64,000 nucleotides of DNA. Source: Candidatus Woesebacteria bacterium RIFCSPLOWO2_01_FULL_39_23. Its GTDB lineage: Bacteria; Patescibacteriota; Microgenomatia; UBA8517. Where the stretch lies: positions 6,569-70,568 of the forward strand of contig MGHG01000005.1 of assembly GCA_001793095.1 (NCBI GenBank), in the 5' to 3' direction. The notes beneath the pieces were generated by a model. It was not told the DNA's origin, made no database searches, and was given only the letters and a program-made list of their open reading frames with translations. Numbering within the stretch: position 1 is the stretch's first letter; every line of letters begins with the position of its first letter. This document shows, piece after piece, positions 7,000 to 56,997 of the stretch. The translations under genes and the position numbers were made by a program.

Positions 7000-7131
7000 G
7001 AGTGCCAGCGATTGGGATCGACCTACTAATCTTAGCTTTCGGCTTCAGGAACTATTCGTTCACGCCTCTAGCTGCGATTTCAGAAGGGTCAGCCTTTGGC
7101 TGAAACCCTTCACGATTATAAATTTGTCTTG

Positions 7132-7204
7132 TGTCAGCGGGTGGATTCGAACCACCGGCCGCTGCGTTATGAATGCAGTGCTCTAACCACTGAGCTACGC
7201 TGAC
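7132..7204 (-). tRNA. tRNA with CAU anticodon (Met, or Ile2 if lysidinylated); CCA not encoded
   Basis: Minus-strand read GTCAGCG TA GCTC AGTGGTTA GAGC A CTGCA TTCATAA CGCAG CGGCC GGTGG TTCGAAT CCACC CGCTGAC A. The cloverleaf is canonical with a 7-bp acceptor and TTCGAAT T-loop; 31:39 is an A-C mismatch. Confidence 0.8.
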
Positions 7205-7308: not shown

Positions 7309-7992
7309 CTACAATCGTGTTTGCAATCTCAAACCTTCGATATAACCTTGAATTTTCCTTAAAAAATCTTTACTTTTAAGAACTTTAACTCGTAATAAAC
7401 CATAATATTCATCGGGATGATCGTATATTTTTTTCCACTTCACATTCTGAAAATAGGGTTTTCTAAAATTATTAAGTGGAATATTTGTTAAGTCAGACCA
7501 ATGTCTTTCAATCTCTCTGATCCTAGATCGATGACTGTCATTAAGGGTTACACGTACAGTAAGATCGTTATAGTTATAATTAAAACATTTACTTAACCAT
7601 ATCAAAAACAAATTAATCATTGTTGGATCTGAATTAGCAAATCCAGCCTGACTATCTTTTTTAAAACCCTCGCTCCAATAGAGAGCTATTCCCACCAAAA
7701 ACAGCTCCCTTTTAGACAATAAGCCAACTTCGTTAATCCCCTTTCGTTTTAACTCCTCAACTTTCTTATTAGTTTGTAATTTTATATGATTTATATAATC
7801 TAAACGTTTACCATATAGAGGATCTCTTGCATGACTTTCTAAAACTTTGTATTGCTCTTGGGTTAGAATAATATCCCTTGTCCAAAGACTAACAGAACTT
7901 GTTGATACATTTAATTTTTTTGCTATATATTTAATGCTTAACCCTTTTTTTCTTAAATTTATAGCTTCAATTTTTTTCTGAGATTTTGCCAT
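7309..7992 (-). CDS. HTH-domain protein with LAGLIDADG-like motif (homing-endonuclease-like), paralog 1
   Basis: 227 aa; N-terminal HTH (LRKKGLSIKYIAKKLNVSTSSVSLWTRDI). Central LVGIALYWSEG resembles a single LAGLIDADG motif, followed by the conserved GFANSDP box. Paralogous to 55051..55770. Confidence 0.5.
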   Translation of the reverse strand: MAKSQKKIEAINLRKKGLSIKYIAKKLNVSTSSVSLWTRDIILTQEQYKVLESHARDPLYGKRLDYINHIKLQTNKKVEELKRKGINEVGLLSKRELFLVGIALYWSEGFKKDSQAGFANSDPTMINLFLIWLSKCFNYNYNDLTVRVTLNDSHRSRIREIERHWSDLTNIPLNNFRKPYFQNVKWKKIYDHPDEYYGLLRVKVLKSKDFLRKIQGYIEGLRLQTRL

Positions 7993-8061: not shown

Positions 8062-8089
8062 CATAACGTTCATTAATATATCAATACAT

Positions 8090-8424
8090 GCGGGGTAGTG
8101 TACGGCTGCACGGAAGGCTCGAAGTAATTGGGCCCTCAGATAAGAAATTATTATGAGTGAATTTGGTCACGGTACCATGTAGTACGTGATCGTGCGCTAA
8201 ATAGTGCGCGACTATATCGGTGAAACCTAAGTGGTAAGTATAAGCGGAATCATAAGGTAACGCCGAGGAAAGATCCTGAATAAAATTGAAGGAAATCCGT
8301 AGAGACTATACGCCAAATACCTAAACTATATTTAGAATGGTAAAGACATAGTCCGATACTCCGGGAAACCGGAGAAATTTTTAAGCATAATCTTCCAGGC
8401 TGGGTTCGACTCCCAGCCCCGCAA
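8090..8424 (+). ncRNA. ssrA: tmRNA (SsrA)
   Basis: 5' UGCGGGGU pairs with 3' ...GCCCCGCA across about 335 nt. The 3' end is a tRNA-like T-arm, CTGGG TTCGACT CCCAG, plus acceptor strand, discriminator A, and no encoded CCA. The 5' region GGCUCGAAG resembles the conserved tmRNA GGAUUCGACG box. No D-arm is present. Tag reading frame not resolved. Confidence 0.6.
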
Positions 8425-8954: not shown

Positions 8955-9308
8955 TTATATGCCAAAAAGATGAAACCATTTCTTCCAGTTTGGATCGGGA
9001 AGGGTGTCCTCTTGCTCTTCAATTTTGGGAGCGAGTTTCCTTACAACCTCGGGTGGTGGGAGAACTACCACTATCTCCCCCTCTTTCGCTAAGCCTAATT
9101 TATCCCTTATCTGCTTCTCAATATAATCGTCGCTTTTCACCTCTTCCAACTTTTTCTCAAGATCTTTTTCCTCTTCCTCTAAAGCCTTTACTTTCTCTTC
9201 TTTTTCCTTAGTCATTCTCTTGATCTCCTGCACTCGACCTATATTCTTGTAGAATGAAAGCGCCAACGAGAGTAGCAAAAAGTAAAAAAGGAATTTTTGG
9301 AATCTCAT
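8955..9308 (-). CDS. septum formation initiator (FtsB/DivIC/FtsL-like) coiled-coil membrane protein
   Basis: 117 aa; N-terminal TM, long Glu/Lys coiled coil, IEKQIRDKLGLAKEGEIVV segment typical of FtsB/DivIC. Confidence 0.5.
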   Translation of the reverse strand: MRFQKFLFYFLLLSLALSFYKNIGRVQEIKRMTKEKEEKVKALEEEEKDLEKKLEEVKSDDYIEKQIRDKLGLAKEGEIVVVLPPPEVVRKLAPKIEEQEDTLPDPNWKKWFHLFGI

Positions 9309-9532: not shown

Positions 9533-10396
9533 ATGGTACAAGATTCCTTAAAAAGTCTGCTCCCCAAATTTATTAAGAATTTGGAAGAAAAAAAACGTTC
9601 CCCCTCTACTATACTCGCATATAGAGCAGATCTGGAACAATTGGTATCATTTCTAATAGAAAAAGGTAAAGTAACCAGTGATCAAGTTAAATCTGAAGAT
9701 ATAGAAGCCTTTAGAGATTCTCTCTTAACCCAGAAATATACCCCAAAATCCGTTTCAAGGAAGCTAAACGCAATTAAAACCTTTTTCAGATGGATTATTG
9801 ACGGCAAATTTGCAACATACGATCCTTCCTCAAACGTATCCCACCCCAAAGTCGAAATTTCTAATCCCAAGTTTTTATCTCCCCTCGAATACCGCGCTTT
9901 AAGAGATGTTGTCCGGGGTGATTTGCGAGTTGCAGCCATAATTGAGCTTATTCTCCAAACAGGACTCCGAATTTCCGAAGTATCAAACCTTAAAATTGAT
10001 GATATTAAAGATAGTAACTTAAAAGTCAGAGCATATGCGACCCAGCTCGAGCGTGTAATTCCACTTAATAATCCCGCCAAACAAGCACTAGACCAGTATC
10101 TCAAAGGTAGGCCAAAAGGAGATTCCGAATATATTTTTGTAAGTAAGAATTCAAAACCTCTGGCTATAAGAAACGTTCGCGCAGCAATTGATAGATATTT
10201 CCAAAGAGCCGAAATAGCAGGCTATTCGGTAAATGATCTGAGAACAACTTTTGTCGTTCAAAACCTTAAGGCGGGTGTCGATTTAGTCTTTTTATCTAAA
10301 GTTTCCGGCCACAGACGCCTTTCAACCACCGAGCGCTACCTCGAACTTGCTCAAATAAAAGAATCCGGCAAGAAACAAACCCTCGAAGAATTATAA
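9533..10396 (+). CDS. tyrosine site-specific recombinase (XerC/XerD-like)
   Basis: 287 aa; N-terminal core-binding ILAYRADLEQLVSFL; C-terminal catalytic R...HRRLSTTERY (R-H-R-Y) signature. Confidence 0.8.
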   Translation: MVQDSLKSLLPKFIKNLEEKKRSPSTILAYRADLEQLVSFLIEKGKVTSDQVKSEDIEAFRDSLLTQKYTPKSVSRKLNAIKTFFRWIIDGKFATYDPSSNVSHPKVEISNPKFLSPLEYRALRDVVRGDLRVAAIIELILQTGLRISEVSNLKIDDIKDSNLKVRAYATQLERVIPLNNPAKQALDQYLKGRPKGDSEYIFVSKNSKPLAIRNVRAAIDRYFQRAEIAGYSVNDLRTTFVVQNLKAGVDLVFLSKVSGHRRLSTTERYLELAQIKESGKKQTLEEL

Positions 10397-10880: not shown

Positions 10881-10955
10881 TGGTGGAGCCGCTTGGAGTC
10901 GGACCAAGTACATCGATCTTATAAGGATCGCGTTCTGCCGGTGAACTACGGCTCC
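10881..10955 (-). tRNA. tRNA with UAU anticodon (putative tRNA-Ile decoding AUA), CCA encoded
   Basis: Minus strand: GGAGCCG TA GTTC ACCGGCA GAAC G CGATC CTTATAA GATCG ATGTA CTTGG TCCGACT CCAAG CGGCTCC A CCA. All stems are Watson-Crick, giving a 72 nt body plus CCA. Confidence 0.7.
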
Positions 10956-55050: not shown

Positions 55051-55770
55051 ATGTTCGTATATTACAGTTATTATATGGGTTACTTTGGTAAATTAGATGA
55101 AAGAATCAAAGTACAAGAACTTCGTAGGAAGGGGTATTCTTACAATGAGATACTTCAATATGTAACAGTTTCTAAAGATACTCTGAGCAGATGGTGCAGT
55201 AATATTCCCCTATCTGTCGAACAACAAAACCGTTTATTAAAAAACAAATCTTTAGGACAACGTAAGGGATCGCTAATAGCTGCAGAGAAAAAAAGGGAAG
55301 AAAGGATATTTAGAACAAATGCAATTATGAATAAAGCCAAAAAGGAAGTGGGGAAACTGAACAAAAGAGAAAGATTTATAGCTGGTTTAGCTTACTATTC
55401 AGCAGAAGGCGATAAATCTGAGAGCAAAAGTGGTTTTGCCAATTCTGACCCTAAAGTAATATGTTTCATGATTAATTGGTTCAAGGAGTTCTGTAATATC
55501 CCTGAGTCAAAATTTCGTGGAGCTTTGTGGTTACATGAAGGTTTAAATGACTATCAAGCGAGAAGGTTCTGGTCAAAAATCACAGGAATACCACTAGAAC
55601 AATTTTATAAGACTTACATTGCAAAAAACAAACAAGACAGTAAAAAGGTCAGAAAAAATCTACATCTATATGGGGTATTTTCTATAAGGTTTTGCGATGT
55701 AAACATACAAAGGAAAATATTAGGATGGATTTCAGGTTTATTTGATGCTAAAATCGGTACTGCTCTTTAA
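55051..55770 (+). CDS. HTH-domain protein with LAGLIDADG-like motif (homing-endonuclease-like), paralog 2
   Basis: 239 aa; N-terminal HTH LRRKGYSYNEILQYVTVSKDTLSRWCSNI; IAGLAYYSAEGDKSE LAGLIDADG-like box; GFANSDP box shared with 7309..7992. Ends 3 nt before the intron-containing tRNA. Confidence 0.5.
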   Translation: MFVYYSYYMGYFGKLDERIKVQELRRKGYSYNEILQYVTVSKDTLSRWCSNIPLSVEQQNRLLKNKSLGQRKGSLIAAEKKREERIFRTNAIMNKAKKEVGKLNKRERFIAGLAYYSAEGDKSESKSGFANSDPKVICFMINWFKEFCNIPESKFRGALWLHEGLNDYQARRFWSKITGIPLEQFYKTYIAKNKQDSKKVRKNLHLYGVFSIRFCDVNIQRKILGWISGLFDAKIGTAL

Positions 55771-55773
55771 TAT

Positions 55774-56066
55774 TCCCCGGTAGCTCAGCGGTAGAGCGGA
55801 TTCCTGTGATTTCTTAGCAGCTCTTAAGGGAAACTTTAAGATGAAAACTGGGAGAATTGCGTGAAGCCCCTATCTTCGGATGAGGTAACCCGCAGCCGAT
55901 CCTTTGTTAAAGTGGAAAGCACTGCTTTAGCTTAGGCAGGTTCAGAAACTATGCACCCAGACTCTAATCCAAATCGGCATGAGTAAGATATAGTTCCGCG
56001 TCCCATGGAAACATGGGGGTACGAGTAAGAATAAGGTCGTAGGTTCGAATCCTACCCGGGGAGCCA
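55774..56066 (+). tRNA. tRNA-Asn(GUU) interrupted by a 218-nt group I intron between positions 35 and 36 (intron 55808..56025); CCA encoded
   Basis: Exon 1 is TCCCCGG TA GCTC AGCGGTA GAGC G GATTC CUGU. Exon 2 is UAA GAATA AGGTC GTAGG TTCGAAT CCTAC CCGGGGA G CCA. The acceptor is a perfect 7 bp. The intron has group I core elements: P-like GGGAAACTTTAAGATG, Q-like AATTGCGTGAAG, R-like GTTCAGAAACTATG and S-like AAGATATAGTTCC. An IGS GCAG can pair with exon CUGU, and the intron ends in G. Confidence 0.8.
55808..56025 (+). mobile_element. group I self-splicing intron (tRNA anticodon-loop type, no internal ORF)
   Basis: Conserved P/Q/R/S core sequences are listed above. The 218-nt length is in the range of Azoarcus/Anabaena tRNA introns. 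The ORFs listed on the opposite strand inside it are spurious. Confidence 0.75.
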
Positions 56067-56090: not shown

Positions 56091-56387
56091 ATGCATAATA
56101 TTCCAACCCCAGAAGGCTTGCAAGCAGTTCTGTGGTCAAAAAAATTAAACAACATAGACATTAATAAAGACAAAAACTATATCATTAATCAGGTGCTTGC
56201 CTACGGCCTTATAGAACATATCCAGTGGCTCTTTAAGGTGTATTCAAGAAATACAATTATTGAAACTTTTTTGGAAAATCCTTCCAAGATATACTCAGAT
56301 AAAGCTTTAAATTTCATAAAGTTCATTCTTTTTGAAAATAATCCTGTCAATTTAGACGAGAAAAAATATGTCCGATATCCACTTTGA
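56091..56387 (+). CDS. hypothetical protein (possible antitoxin partner of the downstream AbiEii-like gene)
   Basis: 98-aa ORF overlapping the downstream gene start by 20 nt. Confidence 0.3.
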   Translation: MHNIPTPEGLQAVLWSKKLNNIDINKDKNYIINQVLAYGLIEHIQWLFKVYSRNTIIETFLENPSKIYSDKALNFIKFILFENNPVNLDEKKYVRYPL

Positions 56388-56997
56388 AATACTCGATCCG
56401 GACAGATTGGAAGTATTCAAACTCCTAGCTAAATTCAAAAAATATGGCGTATTGGGAGGTGGTACTGCTATCGCACTTCAAATAAAACATCGAAAATCTT
56501 TTGATTTTGACATTTTTTTAAATCAGAGTGTTCCAGAGGAATTAAAAGAGAGTGTAAAAAGTGTTTACAGAGATTTCCAGATACTTCGTGAAGAAGCTAA
56601 TCAAATAGACTACATTGTAAAAAAGGAAATAAAATTAACTTTTCTAAAACACGCGTTTCCCCCTCTGCATTCACTTATAGATACAGGATATATAGAACTT
56701 TTCAATCTAAAAGATTTAGCTAGTAACAAAGCGGCAACCATCGGCAGGAGAGGAACTTGGAGGGATTATGTCGATTTATTCTTTTTAATAAAAGATGGCA
56801 CCTCGAATTTAAAAGAGATCATAGATGAGACAGAAAAAAGGTTTGGGGGTGAGTTCAATAAAAGACTTTTTCTTGAGCAGCTCCTCTACACAAGGGATAT
56901 AACTGACTATGAAATTGACTTTCTTGGTAAAAAACATGAACCCGAAGAAATTAAAAACTTCTTTGAAGATCAAGTAAAAAGTTATAATAGGTTCTAA
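56368..56997 (+). CDS. AbiEii/AbiGii-family nucleotidyltransferase (DUF1814) toxin-like protein
   Basis: 209 aa; GVLGGGTAIALQIKHRKSFDFDIF matches the GGTALxLxxxHRxSxDxD nucleotidyltransferase signature of AbiEii. Confidence 0.55.
   Translation: MSDIHFEILDPDRLEVFKLLAKFKKYGVLGGGTAIALQIKHRKSFDFDIFLNQSVPEELKESVKSVYRDFQILREEANQIDYIVKKEIKLTFLKHAFPPLHSLIDTGYIELFNLKDLASNKAATIGRRGTWRDYVDLFFLIKDGTSNLKEIIDETEKRFGGEFNKRLFLEQLLYTRDITDYEIDFLGKKHEPEEIKNFFEDQVKSYNRF

Follow-up and report, generated by a model that had tools for sequence, protein, structure and literature searches.

Predicted helix-turn-helix LAGLIDADG-like genes at the 5′ ends of tRNA genes and their association with group I introns in Patescibacteria

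Introduction

Group I introns between anticodon positions 35 and 36 have been described in 15 tRNA-Asn(GUU) genes among 95 complete Patescibacteria genomes (Nakagawa et al., mSystems 2026; bioRxiv 2025; PMC13011429). That class was assigned to structural subgroup IA, introns at 33/34 of Microgenomatia tRNA-Met(CAU) genes were also listed, and precise self-splicing in vitro was obtained for one tRNA-Asn intron, from Saccharimonadia, and one tRNA-Asp intron (PMC13011429). Endonuclease genes were sought inside the introns only, where HNH genes were found in four Asn introns, and it was concluded that most tRNA introns lack endonucleases and have limited mobility; flanking genes were not mentioned (PMC13011429). 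Collaborative, or trans, homing is known from cyanophage S-PM2 (F-CphI and the psbA intron) and from phage T4 (mobE and the nrdB intron, whose I-TevIII is defunct) (PMC3984707, PMC2790892), and SegB of T4 is a free-standing endonuclease encoded in a tRNA cluster that recognizes tRNA genes (PMC2330249). Here we describe a split tRNA-Asn(GUU) gene (55774–56066, plus strand) and the gene directly upstream of it in a 64-kb window, that is, the whole stretch of DNA analysed, from a Candidatus Woesebacteria genome (Patescibacteria). The proteins encoded in the window match proteins of Candidatus Woesebacteria metagenome-assembled genomes identically.

The intron of this gene resembles the published class in host tRNA, insertion site, phylum, exon-terminal U, intron-terminal G and detection by the Rfam model RF00028, and its 218 nt fall within the published length range (PMC13011429). 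It is an additional member of that class and not new as a kind. An initial annotation of the window had described both the Asn host and the 35/36 site as unusual; this argument from rarity is out of date, since the same class has been described in Patescibacteria with Asn 35/36 hosts, including a self-splicing homologue (PMC13011429). What sets the window apart from the published class is an endonuclease-like gene that lies outside the intron, immediately upstream of the tRNA. We propose, at about even odds (probability roughly 0.5), that this gene may encode a free-standing, tRNA-gene-targeted homing endonuclease of the LAGLIDADG type that resides in the tRNA leader and mobilizes introns without an open reading frame (ORF) in trans.

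Results

The split tRNA-Asn gene

The 5′ exon (55774–55807, +) supplies tRNA positions 1–35 and ends in U35, the ORF-less 218-nt intron (55808–56025, +) interrupts the anticodon between positions 35 and 36 and has G as its last nucleotide, and the 3′ exon (56026–56066, +) runs from U36 to A72, followed by the discriminator G73 and an encoded CCA. Joining the exons in silico gave a 75-nt tRNA-Asn(GTT) that was accepted by ARAGORN, and moving the junction by 1–3 nt altered the anticodon. The acceptor, D and T arms of the spliced tRNA are perfect, and the anticodon stem carries a single mismatch, G27–A43, which is also present in related Patescibacteria tRNA-Asn genes. A covariance-model search, which the initial annotation had proposed, matched Rfam Intron_gpI (RF00028) at 55798–56018 (+) with 56.7 bits (E = 1e-11; curated gathering cut-off, 50 bits), covering the whole model. 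Together with the splice test, this bears out the earlier description of a tRNA-Asn(GUU) split at 35/36, including its coordinates, guide, terminal G and perfect arms after removal of 218 nt, and the four core strings that had been singled out fall in the P2, P4, J6/7–P7 and J8/7–P7 columns of the Rfam alignment.

The internal guide sequence (55811–55820, +) consists of UUCUUA (55811–55816), which forms six perfect P10 base pairs with UAAGAA of the 3′ exon, and immediately 3′ of it GCAG (55817–55820), which pairs as P1 with the CUGU that ends the 5′ exon (55804–55807), with a U–G wobble at the splice site. P1 and the 6-bp P10 fix the junction of the window intron. The GCAG guide was found in 41/41 related introns and P1 was common to all 26 aligned homologues; RNAalifold, applied to 26 homologous introns, detected compensatory double changes in 21 of 32 predicted pairs, distributed over P2, P3, P4, P5 and P8. 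Under a strict adjacency rule, only 16 of the 41 related introns had a P10 of 3 bp or more; P10 was therefore dropped as a universal feature, so that it backs the junction in the window alone. From the Rfam match, the covariation and the published class, the 218-nt insert is predicted to be a functional group I ribozyme without an ORF that belongs to the Patescibacteria tRNA-Asn 35/36 class; its splicing would restore the GUU anticodon.

A gene family at tRNA 5′ ends

The upstream gene, ORF1 (55075–55770, +), encodes 231 aa. An abutting ORF at 55051–55770, as reported in the initial annotation, does exist and its stop codon ends 3 nt ahead of tRNA-Asn. In all homologues and in the NCBI record (OGM12824.1, 231 aa) the start is at MGYFGK, which corresponds to 55075 and not to the upstream ATG at 55051 of the ORF list (239 aa). 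ORF1 has at least 223 homologues of ~230 aa at 50–65% identity, all from Patescibacteria and all annotated as hypothetical. CP066688.1 is one of the complete genomes in which the ORF occurs.

A scan of the genome collection, with one genome per species, gave 72 loci of the ORF family. A tRNA gene lies directly downstream of the ORF in 71 of them, on the same strand except at L054. Loci L001–L054, with 46–64% identity, form the Asn clade and all adjoin tRNA-Asn; L054 (3668–3928, −), where an intron-bearing tRNA-Asn is convergent with the ORF and starts 8 nt past its stop, is the sole orientation exception among these 54. Members at 28–43% identity, which come from Omnitrophota and from other Patescibacteria, lie ahead of intronless tRNA-Lys(CUU), tRNA-Met(CAU) and tRNA-Ala(GGC) genes, often in tRNA clusters, and no intron was found within 3 kb at these distant loci except at L064. 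The spacing from stop codon to tRNA is mostly +3, +12, −10, −21 or −38 nt, and at many loci (L008, L013, L019, L021, L025, L026, L032, L044, L050, L053, L055–L062, L064–L068, L070 and L071) the ORF stops inside the tRNA, at a UAG at positions 8–10, a D-arm TAG or the anticodon-loop UAA. RNase P cleavage at tRNA nucleotide 1 would then give a non-stop mRNA, possibly a built-in limit on expression. Given the clustered spacing and the distant members beside intronless tRNAs, the primary linkage is that of the ORF with the tRNA 5′ end, not with the intron.

Association with intron-bearing tRNA genes

Within the Asn clade the intron is present in 52/54 loci, against a published baseline of 15/95 Patescibacteria genomes (PMC13011429). 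An intron-neutral 5′-exon pattern was used to sample 121 tRNA-Asn genes from metagenomes; the ORF was upstream of none of the 121, and five (L085, L112, L115, L117 and L183) carry clean introns without it. Eight of the sampled genes are interrupted, of which L089, L127 and L146 were left uncounted as unconfirmed (truncated contig, partial tRNA or possible ORF-containing intron). The association is therefore asymmetric: introns are often found with no ORF beside them, and ORFs of the Asn clade almost never lack the intron. One of the sampled introns, in L115 (6516–7484), is 898 nt long, contains an internal 215-aa ORF and has no family ORF upstream of its tRNA; it is probably of the HNH type known from the literature. 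The same may hold for L089, which is truncated where its contig ends.

A second member of the family lies elsewhere in the window. ORF2 (7309–7992, −; 227 aa; OGM12772.1) is a Met-clade paralogue of ORF1 (~32% identity), detected by tblastn of family proteins (41% identity to L063, E = 1e-56), and has ~200 homologues in that clade. An intronless tRNA-Met(CAU) (7131–7204, −; ARAGORN, Rfam tRNA 70 bits) lies 104 nt downstream of ORF2, and a split tRNA-Met(CAU) (8089–8424, +; exons 8089–8119 and 8386–8424) is divergent from it, 97 nt from its start codon. In-silico splicing of the latter gives tRNA-Met, with exons nearly identical to a published Microgenomatia Met(CAT) 33/34 gene (PMC13011429); its 266-nt group I intron at 33/34 (8120–8385, +) matches RF00028 with 51.6 bits at 8110–8375. 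Both group I introns of the window adjoin a member of the ORF family, and ARAGORN in default mode missed both split tRNAs.

The arrangement around ORF2 recurs in its relatives. In 6/6 sampled Met-clade contexts, and likewise at L064, the strand opposite to the ORF carries an intron-bearing tRNA(CAU) 85–100 nt upstream; beside the ORF such a tRNA is found in 8/9 Met-clade loci, including the window. The gene order xerC-like integrase (9533–10396 in the window), DivIC (8955–9308), split tRNA-Met, ORF2, tRNA-Met and class I tRNA synthetase is also kept in 6/6 sampled loci, which places the Met-clade ORF in a stable chromosomal setting. The upstream gene had at first been described as linked to the tRNA-Asn intron. 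This link is very strong in the Asn (52/54) and Met (8/9) clades and confined to them, and the family is tied to tRNA 5′ ends generally, including those of intronless tRNA-Lys, tRNA-Ala and tRNA-Met. At one Met-clade locus (L193), an 83-aa GIY-YIG gene (877–1128, −) lies just 3′ of the intron-bearing tRNA(CAU), and thus a second type of endonuclease-like gene occurs beside the same split tRNA.

Insertion into a conserved locus

Clustering of flanking ORFs placed dnaG–rpoD upstream of tRNA-Asn in metagenome loci without the ORF as well as in many loci that carry it. The rpoD stop codon lies 32–152 nt from tRNA-Asn in ORF-less L095, L102, L131, L152, L165 and L172, with larger distances in other ORF-less loci; in ORF-bearing loci the rpoD-to-tRNA-Asn distance is at least 769 nt and reaches ~3.4 kb, and the gap is filled by the ORF. 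Relatives without ORF and without intron are represented by L095, L121 and L140, of which L095, a Patescibacteria-like allele, has the same downstream serine recombinase as 15 ORF loci. The window’s own copy of ORF1 has another context, with no rpoD within 5 kb. These comparisons show that the ORF is an insertion into a conserved dnaG–rpoD–tRNA-Asn locus, with presence/absence polymorphism.

The serine recombinase is large (~500–550 aa, minus strand) and begins 130–300 nt past the 3′ end of tRNA-Asn in the 15 related loci (including L003, L009, L018, L019, L022, L031, L040, L041, L043, L046 and L052) and in L095. Because L095 has no ORF, the 3′ side of tRNA-Asn seems to be an integration hotspot independent of the ORF. 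A reading of the ORF itself as an integrase or part of a genomic island was rejected on account of its position at the tRNA 5′ end, the absence of a recombinase domain and the conserved dnaG–rpoD–tRNA locus.

Separate histories of ORF, exons and intron

Pairs of ORF homologues gave ratios of non-synonymous to synonymous substitution rates (dN/dS) of 0.04–0.16, indicating purifying selection, and a frameshift or in-frame stop was found in 2–3 of the 72 loci. In Mantel comparisons over 40 loci, ORF similarities were not significantly correlated with those of the intron (0.06), and the values for ORF and tRNA and for intron and tRNA were 0.18 and 0.11, respectively. Correlation with rpoD was moderate for the ORF (rho = 0.48) and absent for the intron (0.07). 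One intron lineage (≥75% identical) occurs in tRNA-Asn genes that are 68–100% identical and beside ORFs that are 44–73% identical. Genomes with 90–92% identical RpoD have tRNA-Asn genes that are 100% or only 75% identical; L006 and L009 share 92% identity in rpoD and 75% in the tRNA. These patterns show separate histories for ORF, exons and intron.

Identity profiles of individual pairs show where such histories part. Between L033 and L043, the block of ORF, tRNA and intron (75–85% identity) exceeds rpoD (65–75%), with its edges at the ORF start and the tRNA end. Between L006 and L013, identity is 78–89% in rpoD, 70–79% in the ORF and 31–56% in the tRNA and intron, with a breakpoint at the ORF/tRNA junction. 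A further pair, L018 and L050 (rpoD 96%, ORF 54%), was considered as a xenologous replacement and set aside as uninformative, dnaG being equally diverged. The profiles fit repeated recombination or gene conversion centred on the site, which falls short of proving homing.

Domain structure of the ORF1 protein

ORF1 contains a predicted helix-turn-helix (HTH) DNA-binding region (55093–55218, +) and a LAGLIDADG-like domain (55363–55752, +) with the motif FIAGLAYYSAEGDK, in which E (rarely D), G and K are kept in all clades. The N-terminal HTH match is weak (HTH_23/38, E = 0.002), and searches of Pfam, NCBIfam and PHROGs returned only weak HTH matches for the family. In a comparison of the family profile with PDB sequences, I-DmoI was the sole non-HTH match (E = 0.05), with ‘YYSAEGDKS...NSDPKVI’ aligned to the second LAGLIDADG motif of I-DmoI, ‘LYVAEGDKT...NKNKALL’. 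The ‘lY..EG.K’ motif is kept across the Asn, Lys, Met and Ala clades, which share only ~30% identity, a few members having D; every clade of the family conserves the acidic residue at the close of the motif helix, the G next to it and the K three residues on.

AlphaFold modelled full-length ORF1 with a predicted local distance difference test (pLDDT) score of 85, and the C-terminal 142 aa with a pLDDT of 86 and a predicted template modelling score (pTM) of 0.81. The fold comparison that accompanied the AlphaFold and Foldseek results gave values of 7.2 for the TliVMA intein endonuclease, 6.9 for WhiA (8dy9), 6.8 for I-Tsp061I, 6.4 for I-CeuI, 6.3 for I-DmoI, 6.1 for both WhiA (3hyi) and PI-PfuI, 6.0 for E-DreI and 5.8 for I-Vdi141I. 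We conclude that ORF1 probably comprises an N-terminal HTH, a helix of ~45 residues and one divergent C-terminal LAGLIDADG-like domain; catalytic competence is plausible. The HTH and LAGLIDADG-like architecture proposed in the initial annotation thus stands in part, the HTH by its weak match and the LAGLIDADG-like domain by the I-DmoI alignment and not by Pfam models.

The family comprises 1,009 clusters at 50% identity for E ≤ 1e-30, and 4,213 for E ≤ 1e-10. Five representatives (P0293, P0296, P0318, P0323 and P0328) are 500–576 aa long with 2–3 profile matches each; they could be tandem fusions, that is, single-chain pseudo-dimers, or gene calls running across the tRNA. No paper on the flanking gene family was found in the library searched, and a tRNA-flanking HTH–LAGLIDADG-like family tied to intron-bearing tRNAs in Patescibacteria appears to be undescribed.

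Other genes in the window

Directly 3′ of tRNA-Asn lies a DUF6922 gene (56091–56387, +) that overlaps a gene for an AbiEii-family nucleotidyltransferase toxin (56368–56997, +). The two (Pfam E = 1e-11 and 2e-9) look like a type IV toxin–antitoxin, or abortive-infection, pair. The window also encodes a tRNA-Ile with the anticodon UAU (10881–10955, −; ARAGORN, Rfam tRNA 56.3 bits). In bacteria such a tRNA is uncommon for AUA, which is usually read by a lysidine-modified CAU tRNA.

Discussion

A candidate mechanism of trans homing

The initial annotation had left open whether the gene upstream of tRNA-Asn was a free-standing homing endonuclease or a maturase, and we favour the endonuclease. The ORF protein, which we infer to be a nuclease, would dimerize, because it has a single LAGLIDADG domain, and the dimer would recognize the DNA of the cognate tRNA gene and cut both strands of an ORF-less allele at or near its 5′ part. 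Repair from an ORF-bearing donor would then place a copy of the ORF in the leader, after the preceding gene or promoter and ahead of tRNA nucleotide 1. The adjacent intron, which begins after only 34 bp of tRNA in the Asn clade and is separated by ~90 bp from the start of the ORF in the Met clade, would be co-converted with the ORF, as in trans or ‘collaborative’ homing. The leader position would allow the ORF to be co-transcribed and leave the tRNA undamaged, and the model would account for the persistence and the change of partners of endonuclease-less introns in reduced genomes.

Several observations weigh against this reading. L016 and L041 carry intact ORFs beside intronless tRNA-Asn genes, and no intron was found within 3 kb in the Lys and Ala clades. 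The two-by-two association of ORF and intron is confounded by phylogeny, and the Mantel correlation of the ORF with rpoD means that much of its inheritance has been vertical. That 95% of the copies are intact and dN/dS is low is unusual for selfish endonucleases and suits a host-beneficial protein equally well. A profile search against LAGLIDADG families, suggested at the outset as a check, matched none of 25 family members with the Pfam LAGLIDADG_1/2/3 or WhiA models, and HTH families only; Foldseek with the full-length ORF1 model gave no LAGLIDADG match and was uninformative. No relatives of the ORF were found in the viral contigs searched, which leaves a phage origin of the ORF unsupported.

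Alternative explanations

A serious rival, although we consider it unlikely, is a domesticated LAGLIDADG host factor that binds the adjoining tRNA gene or transcript and is not mobile: a WhiA-like regulator, a tRNA processing factor or a maturase. Strong purifying selection on nearly always intact copies would be expected of such a factor, as would its similarity to WhiA, an ORF identity that partly follows rpoD, and a packing with the tRNA so tight, with stops inside it, that it suggests coupled expression. Its distribution is patchy, however: L095, L121 and L140 lack the ORF, as do all 121 sampled metagenome tRNA-Asn loci. The protein is also unlike WhiA in having its HTH first and one domain, and the metal-binding-type E/D is kept in all clades. 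To our knowledge, WhiA lacks a metal-binding-type E/D. For a maturase in particular, one may cite the near absence of Asn-clade ORFs without an intron and the alignment, in which P9 is missing from some ORF-linked introns. A cognate maturase is nevertheless disfavoured, since ORF and intron are uncorrelated (Mantel 0.06) and one intron lineage adjoins ORFs of 44–73% identity, the ORF lies outside the intron, and homologues stand beside intronless tRNA-Lys, tRNA-Ala and tRNA-Met. Moreover, a homologous intron self-splices in vitro without protein (PMC13011429); Asn-clade ORFs were not found in the class that it comes from, that genome itself being unchecked.

A stricter form of collaborative homing, in which the enzyme cuts exactly at the 35/36 junction of intronless tRNA-Asn and the intron is kept as immunity, is improbable, for the intact ORFs beside intronless tRNA-Asn at L041 and at L016, where the anticodon arm is identical to that of the spliced tRNA of the window, and the intron-free Lys and Ala clades imply that the intron is not an obligatory immunity device; on these grounds we downgraded it. 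The Met-clade ORF also abuts an intronless tRNA-Met, and the breakpoint between L006 and L013 lies at the ORF/tRNA junction and not at the intron site. These points outweigh the asymmetric association in the Asn clade (52/54), the precedent of F-CphI and the psbA intron (PMC3984707) and the anticodon arm, a natural pseudo-palindrome that would suit a homodimeric LAGLIDADG enzyme. Very unlikely is a historical accident, by which an unrelated HTH gene inserted once upstream of an intron-bearing tRNA-Asn in a Microgenomatia ancestor and descended vertically with no functional tie, for although the Asn clade occurs largely in genomes of the Microgenomatia type, the upstream dnaG–rpoD synteny is kept and ORF and rpoD are correlated (0.48), the adjacency recurs independently with tRNA(CAU), at another intron site (33/34) and in divergent geometry (8/9 Met-clade loci), tRNAs flank the ORF in every clade down to 28% identity, and exons and introns are mosaic among close relatives (L006 and L009; L033 and L043).

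Significance

Returning to the endonuclease reading, we tentatively suggest, on sequence grounds, a wider form of it, which we rate somewhat below even odds: a very large family of free-standing HTH–LAGLIDADG endonucleases (~1,000 clusters at 50% identity, E ≤ 1e-30), specialized for the 5′ edge of bacterial tRNA genes and found in Patescibacteria and Omnitrophota, may mobilize ORF-less introns in trans and possibly enforce their retention. If so, this would explain why introns that splice themselves are retained in tRNA genes that are essential and single-copy, in the most streamlined of bacterial genomes, would reverse the inference in the literature that such introns are for the most part immobile, and would provide a chromosomal bacterial case of collaborative homing, so far known mainly from phages. 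An active family would be the missing mobility engine for the ORF-less tRNA introns of Patescibacteria, and would offer a compact LAGLIDADG scaffold (~130 aa plus HTH) with natural specificity for several tRNA genes. For genome annotation, we note that ORFs of this family stop within the tRNA at many loci and that ARAGORN was blind to both split tRNAs of the window.

Comparison with known systems

The window and its relatives share with F-CphI and mobE a free-standing endonuclease or endonuclease-like gene beside a gene with an ORF-less or ORF-dead group I intron, relatives with alleles lacking both, and mosaic flanking markers. Those systems are phage-borne, concern protein-coding genes and use Endo VII-like or HNH enzymes, whereas the present family is LAGLIDADG-like with an HTH and sits at tRNA genes of bacterial chromosomes; unlike them, it also occurs beside intronless tRNAs and is known from sequence alone. 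SegB is alike in that its gene lies between tRNA genes; the enzyme recognizes an element conserved in tRNA genes and drives the inheritance of the tRNA region around it. However, SegB is a phage GIY-YIG enzyme that cuts near tRNA 3′ ends, and the present family is chromosomal, LAGLIDADG-like and placed at the tRNA 5′ end.

WhiA/DUF199 (3hyi, 8dy9) likewise combines a LAGLIDADG fold with an HTH, but is a near-universal Gram-positive regulator with two LAGLIDADG domains followed by a C-terminal HTH; members of the ORF family are predicted to have one domain after an N-terminal HTH and a long helix, and are patchy in distribution and tRNA-linked, with the acidic residue kept. I-DmoI provides the closest motif, in that ‘YYSAEGDKS’ of the ORF family aligns with ‘LYVAEGDKT’. 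In comparison with LAGLIDADG endonucleases in general (I-DmoI, I-Tsp061I, I-Vdi141I, I-CeuI and I-CreI), the ORF1 model has a shortened first beta hairpin and a different order of helices and strands, and the protein has an extra N-terminal HTH, no Pfam match to these families and a gene that is encoded neither in an intron nor in an intein.

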